From: a virus
Taxonomy: Duplodnaviria > Heunggongvirae > Uroviricota > Caudoviricetes
Virus record (IMG/VR): IMGVR_UViG_2563366958_000018
DNA length: 52,177 bases
Reading direction: 5' to 3' (one strand)
Below are positions 44,643-52,177 of the stretch, piece by piece (position 1 is the stretch's first letter; each line of letters starts with the position of its first letter). Made by a program: the position numbers and the translations under genes. The notes under the pieces are model-generated. The model was not told the DNA's origin. It saw only the letters and a program-made list of their open reading frames with translations, and did no database searches.

Positions 44643-45222
<580 letters not shown>

Positions 45223-45637
45223 AAGATAATCATGTGACCAATTATTGTAATAATTTTAATGGTATGTTTCTACTGGCTATCCAGCGTGTCTGATATCCAG
45301 TAACAAATCGTCAACACGGGTGCAATCAAATAGTGAGTGTTAAGACTGACCACTTATTACCAGGTATGAGTGGCCAGCATTAAATCAGAACAGCCCTTTA
45401 ACTGAACTGGCCGCGCTGTTAAGGGATGATGTCACCTTATCTTTGAAGCCGGACAGCATATTGCTGAACGATGAGTTTACCGCAGGTTTCTGGCTGGGAA
45501 TCATTGACTGGAGTTAGGCCAGTAGTATGATGCTCGCAAAACGAGATCCAATTTAGATCCTTTTACTGGTGGATTATCGTTCGATCAGTGAGAGACTTCG
45601 TGCATGACCGAAAGTGTTGTGGTAGAGTTCTCTTAAA

Positions 45638-45652
45638 ACCACGTAACGTGGT
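45638..45652. promoter_or_regulatory. CI-type operator palindrome (ACCAC-GTAAC-GTGGT) in the repA promoter region
   Basis: Perfect match to the ACCAC-N5-GTGGT consensus (extended AACCAC/GTGGTT), about 40 bp upstream of the repA leader, overlapping a TATGAT -10 candidate. Confidence 0.4.
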
Positions 45653-45688
45653 TATGATTGTGGGTGTCTGGTTGGAAAGTGACCAGAT

Positions 45689-46669
45689 ATGGAAACAAAA
45701 AGCCCGCAGATAAATCTGCGGGCTTCTTGCGACATCCACGGAAAACCAACAACAACAATCCATGGGCGCCTCGACAACTCCCATTATACGTTGGTTTTCC
45801 GTGGACGCAAGAGCGAACATATGGATAGACCAATGCCGTCTCTACGTTCAGCTTACGTTTGTAATTTGTCGCCGGAGTTCCAGCCTCCAAAGCACCATAC
45901 GCACAAGCTGCCGCTGGTGTTATCTGATGCTTTACAGCGCATTAATGGGCGTGATCTTACGTGTGAGGTTGCGTTCTACGTTAATCAACCGTCAGAGCGG
46001 AAGCGCCGGATAAACGAGCATCGTCGTCGGGCGATTAATGCTGTGATCGCTGCGATTTTGCACCATGTAAACATCATTTCTAAGCGGGTTCTGGCTAGTG
46101 CTGAGGCGTTGGCTGATTTTTGCGGCCTGTCTACCGTATCCGAAGCTGGGAACAAGTCTATAACGCGCTGTACAAGGGCGTTGTCGCAACTGAAAGCGTT
46201 AGGTTTTATTGATTATGAACGTCGCTGGGATCGGGTGAATAAACAGTATTGGCCAGCGAAAATAGAGATTCGTGATCAACTGCTGGAAACCGTTGGTATT
46301 ACTGAACAAGCATGGAGACGTGCGGTTAGCCAGAAACTTAATTACTTCAATGCGAAGAATAGCGAACGGCTTAAAAAAGCGATAACGGAGGCTGATTATA
46401 AGCGTATTGTTATTCAGGAGCAGATGGAGAATGTATGGCGTCAGAGGAAGACGGCCAGAGAGATAAAGGCAAAACAGAAAGCAGCGGAGAGAGCTGCGCG
46501 TCTTGTTCGGGAAAAGGGAGAGGCCGAACTTCGTCATCAAATCACCAGAGAGGTTAGTCAGGAATTTGCTGATGGCATGTATCCTGGTGCTGACCTTGCA
46601 TATTTACGATCCCTCGTTGAGCAGCGTTATAACAGGTTAAGAAAGACCTGGAAATCACTCCAACATTAA
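45689..46669 (+). CDS. repA: Plasmid replication initiator RepA (IncFII RepA1 / I-complex RepZ family)
   Basis: Conserved RRRAINAVIAAILHH and CGLSTVSEAGNKSITRCTRALSQLKALGFIDY blocks align with IncFII RepA1 as recalled; likely true start at ATG 45821 (282 aa), with 45689-45820 being leader. Confidence 0.85.
   Translation: METKSPQINLRASCDIHGKPTTTIHGRLDNSHYTLVFRGRKSEHMDRPMPSLRSAYVCNLSPEFQPPKHHTHKLPLVLSDALQRINGRDLTCEVAFYVNQPSERKRRINEHRRRAINAVIAAILHHVNIISKRVLASAEALADFCGLSTVSEAGNKSITRCTRALSQLKALGFIDYERRWDRVNKQYWPAKIEIRDQLLETVGITEQAWRRAVSQKLNYFNAKNSERLKKAITEADYKRIVIQEQMENVWRQRKTAREIKAKQKAAERAARLVREKGEAELRHQITREVSQEFADGMYPGADLAYLRSLVEQRYNRLRKTWKSLQH
45699..45810 (+). promoter_or_regulatory. repA leader with two strong hairpins (candidate antisense-RNA target / translational control region)
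   Basis: AGCCCGCAG-ATAAAT-CTGCGGGCT (45701-45723) and CCACGGAAAACCAAC...GTTGGTTTTCCGTGG (15-bp stem, 45736-45804). Confidence 0.35.
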
Positions 46670-47300
46670 CCCACCTGAATGATGAATCCGGTTTTACCGG
46701 AGGATTATCTACGTCGCAATAAAATATCTGTTCAAAAAACAATCTAAATTAATTTTCTCTAAACCTGAACACAGCAAAAATATCGCCTTTACAGGCATCG
46801 GCTAATAAAGTTATCCACAGTTCTGATATGTATATGCAAATGGTTTTTTATAATAGATGCACTAAACAAATAAATGCAAAATCACTTTCTTTTATTAAGA
46901 CTTTCTTTATTTAACTTACGCAGGCTTTGCCTGTGAATATGTTCGCCCTTGCAGCGAGCTAAAGCTCGCGCCGGTTCGAGTCGCTACGCTCAAATATACC
47001 TCCTCCGGCACTTGCCGGAGGCATGGAGCAGCCTGATCATCCTTTTCGAAACGGCACGTTTCGAACTATACAAAATCAATTTATATAAGGCCGAAATAAG
47101 GCCTACGGCCGGGCTTTGCAGGAGGAAGGGGCGAGCCTTATCAATAAACGTCGATAAATACGCACACAGTAGCCATCAGAACGCGATAAAATGTAAGAAA
47201 CATCATTTCCTATTAGACATAGAAAACTTGTCTTATACGCAATGTAGTAAATTTCTATTGCCACATAGGAAAAGATTTCCTACCATCGTAGATATAATAA
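46670..47300. other. Probable replication origin region downstream of repA (AT-rich, DnaA box)
   Basis: TTATCCACA at 46811-46819; AT-rich tracts and GC-rich hairpins (for example CGAAACGGCACGTTTCG). Confidence 0.4.
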
Positions 47301-47312
47301 ATGGAGATGGTT

Positions 47313-47600
47313 ATGGATAAAGATACTGTTTTAAAAATGTTGAATCCGGCTTGTTTAAAAAAAGCGGATGAATGGGAATCTCCTACATGTGGAGAAGTTC
47401 GGGCAGTCATTGGCCTGACCGGAATGAGCGGCTCGCAGTTAGCCAAAAAACTAGGCTTAAAAGATAGTCGCAATGTTCGCAACTGGCAGATGTTAAAGGA
47501 GTCCACATCCAGATCCAGCATTCCGTATGCAGCCTGGGCGCTGCTGTGTTACTTCGCTGGGTTAGGGTTAATCTTCATTGATAACAAAACAGATGTTTGA
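47313..47600 (+). CDS. Hypothetical HTH-like protein (95 aa)
   Basis: GGAG RBS; segment GEVRAVIGLTGMSGSQLAKKLGL resembles an HTH. Confidence 0.4.
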   Translation: MDKDTVLKMLNPACLKKADEWESPTCGEVRAVIGLTGMSGSQLAKKLGLKDSRNVRNWQMLKESTSRSSIPYAAWALLCYFAGLGLIFIDNKTDV

Positions 47601-47623
47601 AACATGCAAATATGAGGTTTGTT

Positions 47624-47887
47624 ATGGAACTTGTACGCAAAACACGCAAAGAGTTCTTGGACCTGTATCGCATGGGAGCTTTCACTTGTGTTGTGGCTAC
47701 CCAGGACGAAGTGACAAAAAGCTGGCGGCTTTTTGCTCTCAATAAAAAAGGGATTGCCGTTTTCATTGAAAAAGCCCGTGGTGGTATCCGCGAATGGGCG
47801 GGATTGAATTATGTGGCTGATTTTTGCGCAGCTATGGGGATTCGTCGCTGGGAAGTCCATATGCCAGGAGTAAAGTCACAAAAATAG
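47624..47887 (+). CDS. Hypothetical protein (87 aa)
   Basis: GAGG RBS 6 nt upstream. Confidence 0.4.
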   Translation: MELVRKTRKEFLDLYRMGAFTCVVATQDEVTKSWRLFALNKKGIAVFIEKARGGIREWAGLNYVADFCAAMGIRRWEVHMPGVKSQK

Positions 47888-48131
47888 GGCTTTCGCGTCG
47901 AAAATGAGGCGAAACTGAAAACGAGATTTCATTAACAAATAAGCAACATAAAAAACGGTGGAAAACGCCCAGGAAAACATGATCTTTTGAGCGGATTTTT
48001 TAGATCCGACAATGAACGGTGATCCGGTGGTGCCGATAACGTCCATTATGTTAAATAGCCCCGTTTTTCTTGAAATTATAACTCACAGGTTATATAGTTA
48101 GTGATATAAACTACAGGTTATAGGATTGAGC

Positions 48132-48479
48132 ATGTGGACGGTACTTTTTAGCCAGCGATTTGACGACTGGCTAAATGAGCAAGAAGACGCTCTTCAGGAA
48201 AAGGTTTTGGCTGATTTGAAAAAGCTACAGGTTTACGGACCTGAGTTACCCAGGCCATATGCCGATACCGTAAAAGGTTCTCGGTACAAAAATATGAAAG
48301 AGCTTCGCGTTCAGTTTTCTGGCCGTCCGATAAGAGCCTTTTATGCGTTCGATCCGATTCGCCGGGCCATCGTTCTTTGTGCAGGAGACAAAAGTAACGA
48401 TAAGCGGTTTTATGAAAAACTGGTGCGTATAGCTGAGGATGAGTTTGCAGCACATCTGAACACACTGGAGAGCAAGTAA
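48132..48479 (+). CDS. RelE/ParE-superfamily toxin (HigB / Gp49-like)
   Basis: 115 aa, toxin-first gene order, TAATG coupling to a downstream HTH antitoxin. Confidence 0.6.
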   Translation: MWTVLFSQRFDDWLNEQEDALQEKVLADLKKLQVYGPELPRPYADTVKGSRYKNMKELRVQFSGRPIRAFYAFDPIRRAIVLCAGDKSNDKRFYEKLVRIAEDEFAAHLNTLESK

Positions 48480-48778
48480 TGAGAACATTAGATGAGGCGA
48501 TTGCCAGCCGTTCACCTGAAAGCCAGGCGCGAATTAAAGAAATGGCAGATGAGATGATTCTTGAGGTCGGCTTGCAGATGATGCGTGAAGAACTCCAGTT
48601 ATCACAAAAACAGGTTGCTGAGGCGATGGGTATAAGCCAGCCAGCAGTAACAAAGCTGGAGCAGCGCGGAAATGATTTAAAGCTGGCGACATTAAAGCGT
48701 TACGTTGAAGCTATGGGAGGCAAATTAAGCCTGGATGTTGAGCTTCCCACAGGAAAACGAATAGCGTTTAACATCTGA
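48479..48778 (+). CDS. HigA-like XRE-family HTH antitoxin
   Basis: HTH (LQLSQKQVAEAMGISQPAVTKLE) in C-terminal half; coupled to upstream toxin. Confidence 0.6.
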   Translation: MRTLDEAIASRSPESQARIKEMADEMILEVGLQMMREELQLSQKQVAEAMGISQPAVTKLEQRGNDLKLATLKRYVEAMGGKLSLDVELPTGKRIAFNI

Positions 48779-48793
48779 TCAGAACGAATGATA

Positions 48794-48820
48794 AGCCCCT
48801 GTTGCAAAGGGGCTTTTTTG
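48794..48820 (+). terminator. Rho-independent terminator
   Basis: AGCCCCT-GTTGCAA-AGGGGCT then TTTTTT. Confidence 0.45.
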
Positions 48821-48827
48821 CGCTCAT

Positions 48828-48941
48828 AGAATTATATAATTATAGATTTATATAAAAAGTGCTTTACAGGTGGGAAAAAATTTCCTAAGGTTATACCCGA
48901 AACCGAGCGATACCCGCCCTGGTTAAACCGGAGATAACCCG
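48828..48941 (+). promoter_or_regulatory. Conserved promoter/operator/leader cassette, copy 3
   Basis: Identical to copies 1 and 2 except a T-to-A change (TAAGG vs TATGG) and a divergent last 10 nt. Confidence 0.5.
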
Positions 48942-49322
48942 ATGAGCATGATTAAAATCCGCAAAAACGCTTTCCTTAAAATTCAAACTATCCTGGCTGG
49001 TTCTGTTGGCGTGATTTGCCGTTCTTCTTCAAGCCGCATCGATGACGGCTACGATGATGAGTATCGTTTGTCCTCGTGCGATGAGGCTTTAACCTGGCTG
49101 AAGGAGAATCAGGAACGTGCCCAGGTATATCTGGAAACAGAGAACGGCAATCAGATGCTCCGTATTAGCGGTCGTTATGGATTTGAAACCACATTCATGG
49201 CCTATTTTAATCAGGCTTACTTTGACAAGGAGTTGGCCTGGTACACTGATCGCATGAGCAAAAGCGAGCCAGCCCCGATTACACCGCCGAACGATAAACC
49301 ATTTTTATTCCTCGTTAAGTAA
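48942..49322 (+). CDS. Hypothetical protein (126 aa)
   Basis: First ORF after cassette copy 3. Confidence 0.45.
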   Translation: MSMIKIRKNAFLKIQTILAGSVGVICRSSSSRIDDGYDDEYRLSSCDEALTWLKENQERAQVYLETENGNQMLRISGRYGFETTFMAYFNQAYFDKELAWYTDRMSKSEPAPITPPNDKPFLFLVK

Positions 49323-49425
49323 ACACAATGCGCAAAGTGTCAAAATGACACTTTGCGAGTGTTAATATAGGGGGCGTTTGAAGATAGATAACTTATTGTG
49401 GGGCAAGCCGATAACTTACATTGGG

Positions 49426-49851
49426 TTAGCTTGAATAGGTAGTTGGTATTTTGAGCATATGGCCAATCTCTTCGAGATGCTTAGATGGATTCTCCCCAGT
49501 CTTACCTTCATGTATTGACGCTATATAGTTCAAATTTTGAGCTGCCCCAAGAATCTCGGTGGCTGATGGAACAAGACGAAAGCCGATATGTAACTTTTTG
49601 ATATAGAAAGGTAAAGTGGAATATTTCGCCATTAACTGTGCTGCGGAATCTTTTAGATCATGAATGATTTCTGGCTTTAAGTTCGAGCCAGGATTCACTA
49701 TTTTTGCTTGGTTACACAATAACAGATTGGATATTTTCCCTAGCTGTTCCCTGAATGAAATGTAAGGCTCAATAGCTCCTTTGACGATGAGTTGGCCTAG
49801 AACAAAAACACTTACACCAGTGACCACGGTGACAAAAGCAGATGAACTCAT
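49426..49851 (-). CDS. Single-pass membrane protein (141 aa), hypothetical
   Basis: N-terminal hydrophobic helix AFVTVVTGVSVFVLGQLIV; divergent from an HTH gene. Confidence 0.45.
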   Translation of the reverse strand: MSSSAFVTVVTGVSVFVLGQLIVKGAIEPYISFREQLGKISNLLLCNQAKIVNPGSNLKPEIIHDLKDSAAQLMAKYSTLPFYIKKLHIGFRLVPSATEILGAAQNLNYIASIHEGKTGENPSKHLEEIGHMLKIPTTYSS

Positions 49852-49952
49852 TTTTTACCTAAAGCCTAAAGATTGGATTGTTAATACATCTTATTTTGTC
49901 GTGAGTGGCTATGTCTAATTTATTGAATATCTAGGGAAAGGTAGAGGATGTA

Positions 49953-50213
49953 ATGACGGGTTACGAATTGAAATTATGGCGTCGTGGGATGAACTGGACG
50001 CAGGAGCGAGCCGCCGAAGAGTTTGGGATATCGTTGGCTACATATAAGCGATATGAGAAGGGTGAGCCGCCGAGGGTCATTGAGATGGCCATTCGCGTTC
50101 TGTCGTTTGACGATATGGTTAAGGATCTTTCACACCTTGATAAAGATGTGATTCTGTTAAGGCTGCAAACCCTTGTATGGGAAAAGGTTAAAGTGTCGTC
50201 AGAATTGGAATAA
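49953..50213 (+). CDS. XRE-family HTH transcriptional regulator (86 aa)
   Basis: HTH (MNWTQERAAEEFGISLATYKRYEKG); GAGGA RBS. Confidence 0.55.
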   Translation: MTGYELKLWRRGMNWTQERAAEEFGISLATYKRYEKGEPPRVIEMAIRVLSFDDMVKDLSHLDKDVILLRLQTLVWEKVKVSSELE

Positions 50214-50275
50214 GGGATCAAATGATCCTTTACGGATCGTTTTATGGTGGTGTAATGTAAGCGCCAGAAAGACAA

Positions 50276-50300
50276 AAACCGCCTTGCCGGGCGGTTTTCA
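50276..50300 (+). terminator. Rho-independent terminator
   Basis: CCGCC-TTGCCG-GGCGG then TTTTCAG. Confidence 0.45.
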
Positions 50301-51010
50301 GTCTGAAATTTAAATCTTGCTTGGTAGGCTGGATTTAAAAAGACACCTCTTGATTGGGGCGGCTTTCTTGCGTCTAAAGATAATCAAATCTTTTTGCGCC
50401 TGCAACCCCTTTTTTACTGGTGCCCATTTCAGACTCACGCTCGCGTCGTTGTCTTTGCCACTTCGTTGGGTTCGGTGTTTTTGGGCGAAGTGGCGCGCGG
50501 GTATGCGTACAAGGGGAAAGTGTGCTGACGCAAGCCAGGAACAGCGATCTAAACTAAGTCGAGTCTGAGAAAGGCAGGAGTGCGACAACTCGCCTGTGCT
50601 CTATGAGCAGAAGAAGGTATATCAGACGACCAATGGCATGATTGTGGGCCACAGGGCGCACACGGCGGCGAAGCATTGGAAACAATGTGGAGCTATCTGG
50701 TGGCATGAGTTCCGGTACTCGATCTCGAGCTTTTTTTGATGCTTTTGAGAAGGGGCCGGAACTCCGGTAAAGGGCACCCTGTATGGGGGGAGGGGGGGTT
50801 GTGTCTGAAGGGTGGTTATCGGTTATGGTGGAATTATGATGCGTAGAAAAGCGAGTTTGCTGCAAGCTATTGGGTCCATTATTTCTTTGTTTCCGGCAGT
50901 TGATCATTTTCGTCATATGGCGACGCGTTCCAGTATGGGCTTGGCGCGTGATGCTGACGCTATTCGAAAGGATTTTCAGAAAGTCTCTGGCGTTGATAAG
51001 AGAGAAAAGA

Positions 51011-51032
51011 GTAAGGGGCCGTAGCCCCTTGT
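51011..51032 (-). terminator. Hairpin terminator downstream of the antirepressor gene
   Basis: AAGGGGC-CGTA-GCCCCTT, T-rich tract on the minus strand. Confidence 0.4.
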
Positions 51033-51034
51033 AG

Positions 51035-52177
51035 TTATGGTCTGCTTTTCTGTGCCAGCTTATCAGCACATGTTTTTATCAGATCCTGTAGTGTCTTGGC
51101 TGGCAGGTTTGCATCCAGTACGCTGAGTATGCTGTTGTGATCAGCTTGGTCGACTACTTTGCCTGTCGGTGGTAGTAGCTTGAGCTGAGGATTCAGGTTT
51201 TCGTCAAAGCTGATAAGTGCTCTGGCGTTTCTGAGCAGATCAAGAAGTAAGGCTGATATCACATTTTCCTGAGTCATTGCTGGCAGATTTAGCGCCGCTT
51301 TGGTTTTCCCTGTTGCCTTGTCAAACGCCTTGATTAGTTCCTTCCTGTAGTTCGGTTCCGTTAATAGCCGATTATGCTCTGTTGCCGCGCGGATAATCGT
51401 TTTTTCCTGGTACAGTCGTTTAGCCAGATCACGCTCGTACTGTGTTTTTAACACGCTGCTGATAGCGTTAAAGGCTTCAATGTAGGCCAGCTTGATATCT
51501 TTCACGCTTGGACCGTCGATGCTCTCCATGAGCAAGGTAAATCCGTCTTTTGTCATGCGATAGATTGTTATTTCGCGGTCGCTTCCTTCCAGCGGTCGTT
51601 GCTCTTTAAAGAAGTGACGCGCCGCAGCCGTGCGAGGAATGCGTAGCGCATCGATGGCCATAACGATGGAATTGTTTGTGGTGCTGAATGCTTGGGCAAC
51701 ATCGGCTGAGGTTGTGAGTGGCTCGTTGTTGCACACTTTAATGTAAAACATCGGTTTGGCGTTGAGCGTATCGACAACCTCACGAGCATTGTTTGGCGAG
51801 ACGGTTACGGTCGCGGCCGTTTGCGCGTTCTGGCTGAAATAGCAGTCTTCCAGCCGTTCGAATACATCCCACGCCTGATCGGTTTCGAGCATTTTGGCGT
51901 GACGTGCAGCCCCGCGTTCTGTCCAGAGAATGAGGGAGCGGGCATTTTTACCAACTAACCCGATTGTTTCAGGTCTGTTCTTGAACTCGCGTAATTCGTT
52001 TTTTTCAATTTTAAAGTAATGCTTTCCGGCTATGAATCGCGTCGTGTTGTTCAGAAAGTTATCAGAAATGTTTTTGATTTTTGTTCCGTATAACTGCGCC
52101 AGAAGTTCAGTTGTAATAACGGGGATCTGGTTATGCAAGATAGGCTGTAGGGTGTTAACGGTCGGAAGCGTTTTCAT
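51035..52177 (-). CDS. Phage antirepressor (AntA/ORF6N-type N-terminal domain, Rha-like central region)
   Basis: 380 aa; N-terminal ITTELLAQLYGTKIKNISDNFLNN...RFIAGKHYF; start codon is the last three bases of the window so the true start may lie beyond it. Confidence 0.7.
   Translation of the reverse strand: MKTLPTVNTLQPILHNQIPVITTELLAQLYGTKIKNISDNFLNNTTRFIAGKHYFKIEKNELREFKNRPETIGLVGKNARSLILWTERGAARHAKMLETDQAWDVFERLEDCYFSQNAQTAATVTVSPNNAREVVDTLNAKPMFYIKVCNNEPLTTSADVAQAFSTTNNSIVMAIDALRIPRTAAARHFFKEQRPLEGSDREITIYRMTKDGFTLLMESIDGPSVKDIKLAYIEAFNAISSVLKTQYERDLAKRLYQEKTIIRAATEHNRLLTEPNYRKELIKAFDKATGKTKAALNLPAMTQENVISALLLDLLRNARALISFDENLNPQLKLLPPTGKVVDQADHNSILSVLDANLPAKTLQDLIKTCADKLAQKSRP

Follow-up and report, generated by a model that had tools for sequence, protein, structure and literature searches.

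The IMG/VR virus record IMGVR_UViG_2563366958_000018, whose 52,177 nucleotides (nt) are together referred to as the window, represents a circular phage-plasmid of Escherichia coli of about 48 kb, which combines an IncFII-type RepA and a HigB/HigA pair with myovirus tail genes. Towards its right end, the list of open reading frames (ORFs) contains a gene for a single-pass membrane protein of 141 amino acids (aa) on the minus strand (49426-49851, ATG start; PHROG 7512) and, 101 bp away and divergently oriented, an 86-aa gene of the XRE family with a helix-turn-helix (HTH) domain (49953-50213, plus strand, ATG start). The two genes are flanked by an unannotated 126-aa gene to the left (48942-49322, plus strand) and by an ORF6N/Rha antirepressor gene to the right (51035-52177, minus strand). 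This arrangement agrees with a preliminary description of the DNA, which had taken the membrane protein for a candidate exclusion or abortive infection moron of a prophage, transcribed divergently from its own XRE regulator. We are confident about what the gene is: a horizontally acquired solo moron, located in a 575-bp insert of low guanine plus cytosine (GC) content between the 126-aa and XRE genes of the phage-plasmid backbone. The XRE gene is not its partner, and the gene belongs to a large, unannotated family of solo genes found in or beside restriction-modification (R-M) and abortive infection (Abi) loci.

The carrier itself differs from the prophage assumed at first. The window is not an integrated prophage: it encodes a plasmid RepA, and positions 47000-52177 (5.2 kb) show 100% identity to the circular 47.7-kb E. 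coli plasmid pMB9698_3. The same segment is 97-99% identical to about a hundred other non-mobilizable Escherichia plasmids of ~48 kb and, likewise, to the three Yersinia pestis phages vB_YpM_39, vB_YpM_41 and vB_YpM_44.

Comparison of these relatives by BLAST delimits the insert to 49369-49943, comprising the membrane protein gene plus flanks of 57 bp (3') and 92 bp (5'). Homology to Yersinia phage vB_YpM_39 stops at 49368 and restarts at 49944, and this phage has 8 bp in place of the 575-bp segment. Twelve of the 62 plasmids matching 48942-50600 contain the insert, and about 47 lack it and keep both flanks and the XRE gene; the remaining plasmids are broken by the record end or are diverged Salmonella relatives. 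The flanks of the relatives lacking the insert (the ~47 plasmids and the three phages) are 97-98% identical, and the site was seen in two states only among the 62 plasmids, with the insert or empty, no other cargo variant being found. The exact insert is present in 13 of 5426 complete E. coli genomes, each time on a plasmid of ~48 kb. It is absent from the 48.5-kb plasmid of ATCC 25922 and from an 82%-identical plasmid of Salmonella Weltevreden, in both of which the gene order is repA, higB, HTH antitoxin, 126-aa gene, XRE gene and antirepressor. With 39.0%, the GC content of the insert is lower than that of the 126-aa gene (45.7%), the XRE gene (46.4%) and higBA (46.2%). Neither target-site duplications nor terminal inverted repeats were seen at the insert junctions, and no other replicon with the same flanks was found that could have served as donor; DNA similarity to the 333 other plasmids carrying a homologue ends at the ends of the ORF. 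Extra DNA and deviating base composition, by which morons are recognized in the sense of Juhala and Hendrix (PMC3594210), are both found here. The designation as moron is thus borne out by the presence or absence of the insert on otherwise similar backbones, by its lower GC content compared with the flanks, and by the occurrence of homologues in accessory regions and defence hotspots.

The XRE protein matches Pfam HTH_3 (E 5.8e-07, 29.9 bits at a cutoff of 23), HTH_31 and PHROG 6962, the function of which is unknown. In Yersinia phage vB_YpM_39 the XRE gene, whose 90-aa product is nearly identical, directly follows the 126-aa gene with no membrane gene in between. Homologues of the XRE gene were detected only on contigs of ~46-48 kb from E. 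coli, Klebsiella aerogenes, Salmonella, Citrobacter and Yokenella, and this gene was absent beside homologues of the membrane protein in about 20 independent contexts. In addition, the intergenic DNA upstream of 49944 is part of the insert and not the ancestral upstream region of the XRE gene, and the entire interval between the two genes (49852-49952) contains only short imperfect inverted repeats. The notion of a regulator belonging to the membrane protein gene is therefore not supported: the two genes are not co-inherited (both are present in 12 of the 62 plasmids, and the XRE gene occurs alone in ~47 of them, in the three Yersinia phages and in the Salmonella relatives), and homologues of the membrane protein elsewhere lack this XRE gene. 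By its distribution, the XRE gene belongs to the backbone of the phage-plasmid, where it adjoins the insert, and is not a dedicated regulator. The divergent layout is a by-product of the insertion, because the membrane protein gene was inserted next to a backbone XRE gene.

The preliminary description had named no family for the membrane protein. Profile searches assigned it end to end to PHROG 7512 (1-141 of 141, E 2.8e-74) but gave no clue to its role, as the function of this PHROG is unknown and no model exists in Pfam, NCBIfam or PADLOC. The family is large and old. A profile search of 1.84 billion representatives recovered 700 cluster representatives at E<=1e-3 and 124 at E<=1e-10, nearly all of them 135-155 aa long. 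A genome scan identified members in Citrobacter, Pantoea, Chromohalobacter, Dehalococcoidia, Desulfatiglandales, Nitrospirae, Pyrinomonadaceae (Acidobacteria), Lachnospiraceae and Oscillospiraceae; the Firmicutes members align over their full length with an hhalign probability of 98%, and the motif of the membrane helix is common to members from E. coli to Oscillospiraceae. Using tblastn, homologues were found on 347 PLSDB plasmids, 264 of which are conjugative, and on the phage-plasmid D6. Using blastn, a homologue was found in 333 of 5426 complete E. coli genomes (~6%), and 336 of the 340 places are plasmids, mostly large conjugative IncF plasmids of the ColV type. Pairwise ratios of non-synonymous to synonymous substitution rates against five homologues range from 0.09 to 0.46, which indicates purifying selection and therefore a real coding gene. 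Searches for literature on the membrane protein by accession, PHROG number and Yersinia phage name found none, no paralogue was found within the window, and matches to profiles of solved structures were at chance level (Mediator Med9, E 0.008) and were discarded.

The protein has a single hydrophobic segment, with a Kyte-Doolittle maximum (19-residue window) of 2.23 at residues 5-23 and no second peak, in accordance with the one N-terminal helix described previously. An AlphaFold2 model based on 22 homologues (predicted local distance difference test score 80.3, predicted template modelling score 0.72) places helices at residues 4-46, 60-78, 97-114 and 123-133. The long helix 4-46 is predicted to hold the hydrophobic segment and to run on into a four-helix bundle of ~115 residues. 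Structure prediction thus yielded a membrane helix with a four-helix bundle. Four-helix-bundle sensor domains (Tar/4HB_MCP, QseE), in which likewise a membrane helix leads directly into an antiparallel bundle, and generic bundles are among the top structural neighbours of the model. In an alignment of 56 family members, the tail preceding the hydrophobic segment has a median length of 2 residues and contains on average 0.16 lysine or arginine residues, compared with 2.75 in the 15 residues following the membrane helix, and the C-terminal flank of the helix is richer in these residues than the N-terminal tail in 56 of 56 members. This bias therefore predicts an inner-membrane anchor with the N-terminus outside and the C-terminus inside, and hence a cytoplasmic bundle; such a topology is consistent with the presence of the family in both diderm and monoderm bacteria. 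Residues 11-30, i.e. the helix and its junction with the bundle, form the most conserved block of the alignment, and residues 111-130 are the least conserved. The family motif reads F.T...GV.VFV.GQ..LK...EP, with LN and L.I.T.Y as further elements and additional conserved positions at L45, Q48, I51, P95, N108, L133 and Y139. The conserved small and polar residues of the helix suggest self-association. Catalytic-type conservation was not seen at any His, Cys, Asp or Ser position of the family alignment, and neither this alignment nor the Pfam scan revealed signatures of a nuclease or any other enzyme.

Homologues of the membrane protein are always solo genes, located on plasmids, phage-plasmids, integrative and conjugative elements (ICEs) and prophages and often standing alone on the opposite strand. 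Their neighbour genes differ in every context and no conserved partner gene was found among them, the 185-aa gene located upstream in R-M operons of Firmicutes being unrelated. On the phage-plasmid D6 the homologue lies between humD and phd-doc, on the ColV plasmid pECOS88 and on an IncX1 plasmid among unknown genes, on a MOBP plasmid about 1.5 kb downstream of an AbiD gene, and on Salmonella plasmids directly downstream of Phd/ParE or Abi_2. The neighbours on the IncF, IncX1 and MOBP plasmids are mostly without Pfam or PADLOC matches.

Beyond plasmids, several homologues are part of restriction loci. Two Firmicutes genomes contain a Type I R-M operon with the order hsdS, integrase, hsdS, 185-aa gene, homologue and hsdR. 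Elsewhere, the homologue comes after genes for an MmeI-type enzyme and an ISL3-type transposase; others are located between genes for an Eco57I-type methylase and a Schlafen/AlbA_2 protein, beside the gene for an Mrr_cat nuclease, or after a group consisting of GmrSD_N, HEPN and C5-methylase genes. In lambdoid prophages the homologue is a lone opposite-strand gene in the replication/nin region, with genes for a P-like loader, DnaB, NinB, RusA or HolE-theta as neighbours. In P2-like prophages it is a lone gene, oriented opposite to its surroundings, between those for tail-fibre assembly and sheath, which in P2 itself is the position of Z/fun. Another P2-like prophage carries the homologue after gpA together with an EcoRII R-M system; the interval between gpA and gpQ of such prophages is a defence hotspot whose known cargo includes old and tin (PMC9122126, PMC13586616). 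One Lachnospiraceae genome has the homologue between integrase and terminase genes, and one element has it among ICE transfer genes. Other contexts show no defence-like genes and contain a group II intron, a UvrA paralogue with IS200, or an SRAP gene. In total, about 10 of about 22 independent contexts include a restriction or Abi neighbour or correspond to a defined hotspot, which supports a role in conflicts between genetic elements.

Some of these loci have peculiarities of their own. In the contigs of the two Firmicutes metagenome-assembled genomes (L033, 38-7683; L034, 16-7746), the two hsdS genes are split by a tyrosine recombinase, forming a specificity shufflon, and an unannotated gene of 185 or 154 aa and the homologue are embedded just before hsdR. 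On the metagenome contigs L011-L013 (e.g. L012, 1-4429), genes for the MmeI-family enzyme, the protein with the ISL3-type transposase domain and the homologue follow each other head to tail, and with ORFs that overlap or are 1 nt apart, the trio looks like one operon. A distant homologue with 31-32% identity is encoded on the viral contigs L056 and L057 (3998-4465) between the gene for a primase-helicase and a gene for a fused head protease and major capsid protein; one of these contigs is 16.9 kb long and may be a small phage or satellite-like element.

Candidate expression signals can be found on both sides of the membrane protein gene. A consensus scan identified a sigma-70-like promoter candidate within the insert, TAGACA-18-TAAGAT, at 49888-49917 on the minus strand (9 of 12 matches); promoter-like sites are no commoner in this region than in shuffled sequences (2 versus 3.6). 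A Shine-Dalgarno-like AGGT (49857-49860, minus strand) precedes the ATG by 5 nt. In backbone DNA, about 70 nt downstream of the stop codon, an inverted-repeat scan detected a perfect 12+12 palindrome (49331-49357), whose hairpin is a probable terminator of the membrane protein gene on the minus strand. The palindrome is kept in plasmids lacking the insert, where it sits just upstream of the XRE gene, and an imperfect copy is found in the Salmonella relative. Next to it, at 49360-49368 on the plus strand, an extended -10-type element, TGTTAATAT, was read from the sequence that had been missed by the scan for -35 and -10 boxes; its counterpart in the Salmonella relative is TGATAAAAT. Where relatives lack the insert, TGTTAATAT (E. 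coli) or TGATAAAAT (Salmonella) follows the palindrome by 2-4 nt and precedes the ribosome-binding site of the XRE gene by ~20 nt. TGTTAATAT is thus a candidate for the ancestral XRE promoter, and the palindrome may be an XRE operator and not a terminator alone. The insert starts at the base right after TGTTAATAT, and a transcript from this candidate promoter would cross the whole membrane protein gene in antisense before reaching the XRE gene.

Two further sequence features were noted at this end of the insert. Its 3' flank contains, between stop codon and hairpin, two 16-nt direct repeats, GATAACTTATTGTGGG and GATAACTTACATTGGG, with a spacing of 23 bp (49387-49425, plus strand). The hairpin loop (49343-49345) reads AAA in the window, in pMB9698_3 and in L055, and TTT in plasmids without the insert and in the viral contig L036, which has the insert. 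The loop orientation could therefore be ruled out as a trace of the recombination that brought the insert: because L036 has TTT, the loop changes its state independently of the insert, as expected for inversion inside a palindrome.

With respect to function, describing the gene as a candidate exclusion or Abi moron appears reasonable on the sequence evidence. Our preferred reading, to which we assign a probability of roughly 0.45, is that carrier cells constitutively produce the protein from a promoter of its own and are thereby shielded, at the level of the inner membrane, from phages or other foreign DNA that enter. In one version of this reading, the protein would be sensor and effector at once: the variable cytoplasmic bundle would sense an infection cue, and the conserved membrane helix (T8, G12, G19, Q20) would then self-associate and permeabilise or depolarise the membrane in the manner of Abi systems. 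Alternatively, the protein might keep phage genomes from passing the cytoplasmic face of the membrane without killing the cell, i.e. by superinfection exclusion. We slightly prefer the Abi type, with exclusion close behind in likelihood. The membrane-helix motif is the same from E. coli to Oscillospiraceae, whereas known exclusion families, such as gp15/YebO (PMC3594210) and SieA (PMC10883804), are narrow and aimed at phage-specific entry machinery; this favours a universal target of the helix, be it the helix itself or the lipid bilayer.

Several observations weigh against a role in defence. About half of the sampled contexts have no recognisable defence neighbour, and because defence genes abound in the accessory regions of mobile elements in any case, guilt by association is weak evidence. 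Neither the 141-aa protein nor 56 of its relatives match Pfam, the protein itself has no match in NCBIfam and none in PADLOC-DB v2 at E<=1, and PADLOC returned nothing for the 56 relatives but one marginal match to LmuC (E 0.0055). All database names of family members are "hypothetical protein". The promoter and terminator proposed for the gene are candidates that consist of consensus matches only, and the almost exclusive location of the E. coli homologues on plasmids would also fit a role in plasmid fitness.

A precedent for a moron with a protective function is gp15 of phage HK97, which excludes superinfecting phages (Cumby et al. 2012, reviewed in PMC3594210). Like the gene analysed here, gp15 is a single small added gene with its own expression signals (candidates in our case), a deviating GC content and an inner-membrane product (predicted in our case). 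It is made in the lysogen, protects against incoming phages and belongs to the YebO family, which is restricted to Enterobacteriaceae (PMC3594210). In contrast, the present family spans several phyla, shows no sequence relationship to gp15 and has a predicted cytoplasmic four-helix bundle of ~115 residues. SieA of phage P22, an inner-membrane protein expressed from the prophage, is of similar size (162-164 aa) and alone sufficient to block DNA injection; its types are highly diverged, and it has three predicted membrane helices, the motif FxRYPxEAxxFNK and a specificity for P22-like phages (PMC10883804). The present protein differs from SieA in having one helix and other motifs, and the PHROG scan showed no relationship between the two. 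Similarity to characterised exclusion proteins (gp15/YebO, SieA, Imm, Cor) was not detected, PHROG 7512 being the sole PHROG match.

Further parallels concern location and membrane anchoring. Homologues occupy exactly the gpA-gpQ and tail-fibre/sheath positions of P2 hotspot cargo, but they have no sequence relation to Old, Tin or Fun, and the copy in the window resides on a phage-plasmid. Transmembrane Abi effectors are likewise membrane proteins encoded in defence hotspots; however, they need a separate sensor or signal partner such as a cyclase, a TIR protein or a reverse transcriptase (PMC9122126), whereas members of the present family are always encoded by solo genes. SNIPE, a membrane-bound nuclease, is constitutively anchored in the inner membrane and acts where the genome is injected (PMC13190303). 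It shares with our protein the (here predicted) anchoring in the inner membrane but has a nuclease domain, whereas the protein studied here has no nuclease signature and no invariant residues of catalytic type. By analogy, the protein resembles moron-encoded inner-membrane exclusion proteins without belonging to any of them by sequence, and would best be filed as a new family of single-gene membrane morons that are candidates for defence.

The other explanations considered are, in falling order, a fitness function outside defence, modulation of restriction, a regulated gene pair, and a toxin-antitoxin or lysis function. According to the first, the gene would be cargo that helps the plasmid or its host, for example in envelope-stress tolerance, plasmid maintenance or host colonisation. 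The E. coli copies, nearly all of which reside on plasmids (mostly of the large conjugative IncF ColV type), are compatible with such cargo, as are the many neighbours that are partition, toxin-antitoxin, resolvase or unknown genes and the lack of any defence model matching the protein. However, cargo of this kind would hardly explain the recurrence in R-M operons and at P2 and lambdoid moron positions across distant phyla, and patchy presence on near-identical backbones is typical of conflict genes. We consider a role outside defence rather unlikely, although it is the strongest of the competing explanations.

The homologues that two Firmicutes genomes have between hsdS and hsdR, and those following MmeI-, Eco57I- and EcoRII-type systems, could also point to an accessory factor that tunes restriction or counters host defence on behalf of the mobile element, for instance by tethering or tuning a restriction enzyme at the membrane, and that is no defence protein in its own right. 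The carriers of the family also include conjugative plasmids, ICEs and phage-plasmids, all of which have to gain entry to new hosts. Most copies, including the one in the window, are nevertheless without a nearby restriction system, and the R-M types concerned are unrelated, hence no common enzyme partner is evident. In addition, anti-defence genes of plasmids are usually located in the leading region and encode soluble products. Modulation of restriction is therefore improbable.

Still less probable is a dedicated module of two genes in which the divergent XRE protein represses an exclusion or Abi gene from the shared intergenic region. XRE proteins commonly regulate adjoining genes, the 101-bp divergent intergenic region contains a promoter-like site for the membrane protein gene, and the candidate ancestral XRE promoter now points in antisense through that gene. 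Incidental regulation may have arisen after the insertion. As a conserved architecture, however, the two-gene module is largely refuted by the XRE gene tracking the backbone without the membrane gene, by the homologues in ~20 contexts without XRE, and by the origin of the upstream DNA in the insert. Least probable of all, and by a wide distance from the preferred reading, is a membrane toxin, either paired with the XRE protein as antitoxin or free-standing like a holin or another lysis protein: the protein is small with a hydrophobic N-terminus, XRE domains occur in antitoxins (matches to MqsA and HipB types are weak and far below cutoff) and toxin-antitoxin genes often adjoin homologues, but the two genes are divergent, not co-transcribed and inherited independently, hundreds of plasmids carry the gene by itself (it stands alone in 333 of 5426 E. 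coli genomes), which would be incompatible with a constitutive toxin, no lysis cassette is present, with the window copy lying between toxin-antitoxin and regulatory genes and homologues on non-phage plasmids, in ICEs and in R-M operons, and the predicted folded cytoplasmic domain of 115 residues is unlike type I toxins or holins.

The remainder of the window is in keeping with a phage-plasmid. A long block is occupied by myovirus-type structural ORFs, the IncFII-type RepA gene is located at 45689-46669, and the genes for a HigB/Gp49-type toxin and an HTH antitoxin are located at 48126-48778. The 126-aa backbone gene, which in this phage-plasmid family is always found between the HigB/HigA pair and the XRE gene, corresponds to PHROG 8090 (function unknown) and has no match in Pfam, NCBIfam or PADLOC. 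The ~820 bp between the XRE gene and the antirepressor gene (50214-51034) are without a long ORF; they contain a GC-rich bidirectional terminator-like hairpin at 50273-50300, and RefSeq annotates a 62-aa ORF at the place equivalent to ~50836-51024 of the window. An Rfam scan of 45000-52177 found no family at its gathering score. Sub-threshold matches to Thr_leader (31 bits) and CsrC (23 bits) were obtained at 45693-45806 on the minus strand, opposite the 5' end of repA, which is the expected site of a CopA-like antisense control RNA.

This locus illustrates a pitfall, in that a divergent HTH neighbour can be mistaken for a dedicated regulator and is in fact merely the gene beside the insertion site. 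The near-identical phage-plasmids with and without the 575-bp insert, in turn, represent ready-made isogenic pairs. Nothing about the membrane protein is mechanistically surprising so far. A more far-reaching and rather doubtful view is that the family constitutes an unrecognised pan-bacterial immune module made of a single protein of ~145 residues, in which the bundle would be the sensor and the helix the effector, and which would have spread over plasmids, phage-plasmids, ICEs, prophage hotspots and R-M operons; in the present phage-plasmid it would have acquired in addition a new coupling via antisense transcription from the ancestral XRE promoter. Should the family indeed protect its carriers from phages or from competing mobile DNA, the catalogue of bacterial defences would gain a single-gene system of very small size, which occurs in several phyla and in about 6% of complete E. 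coli genomes, there mainly on virulence plasmids of the ColV type.

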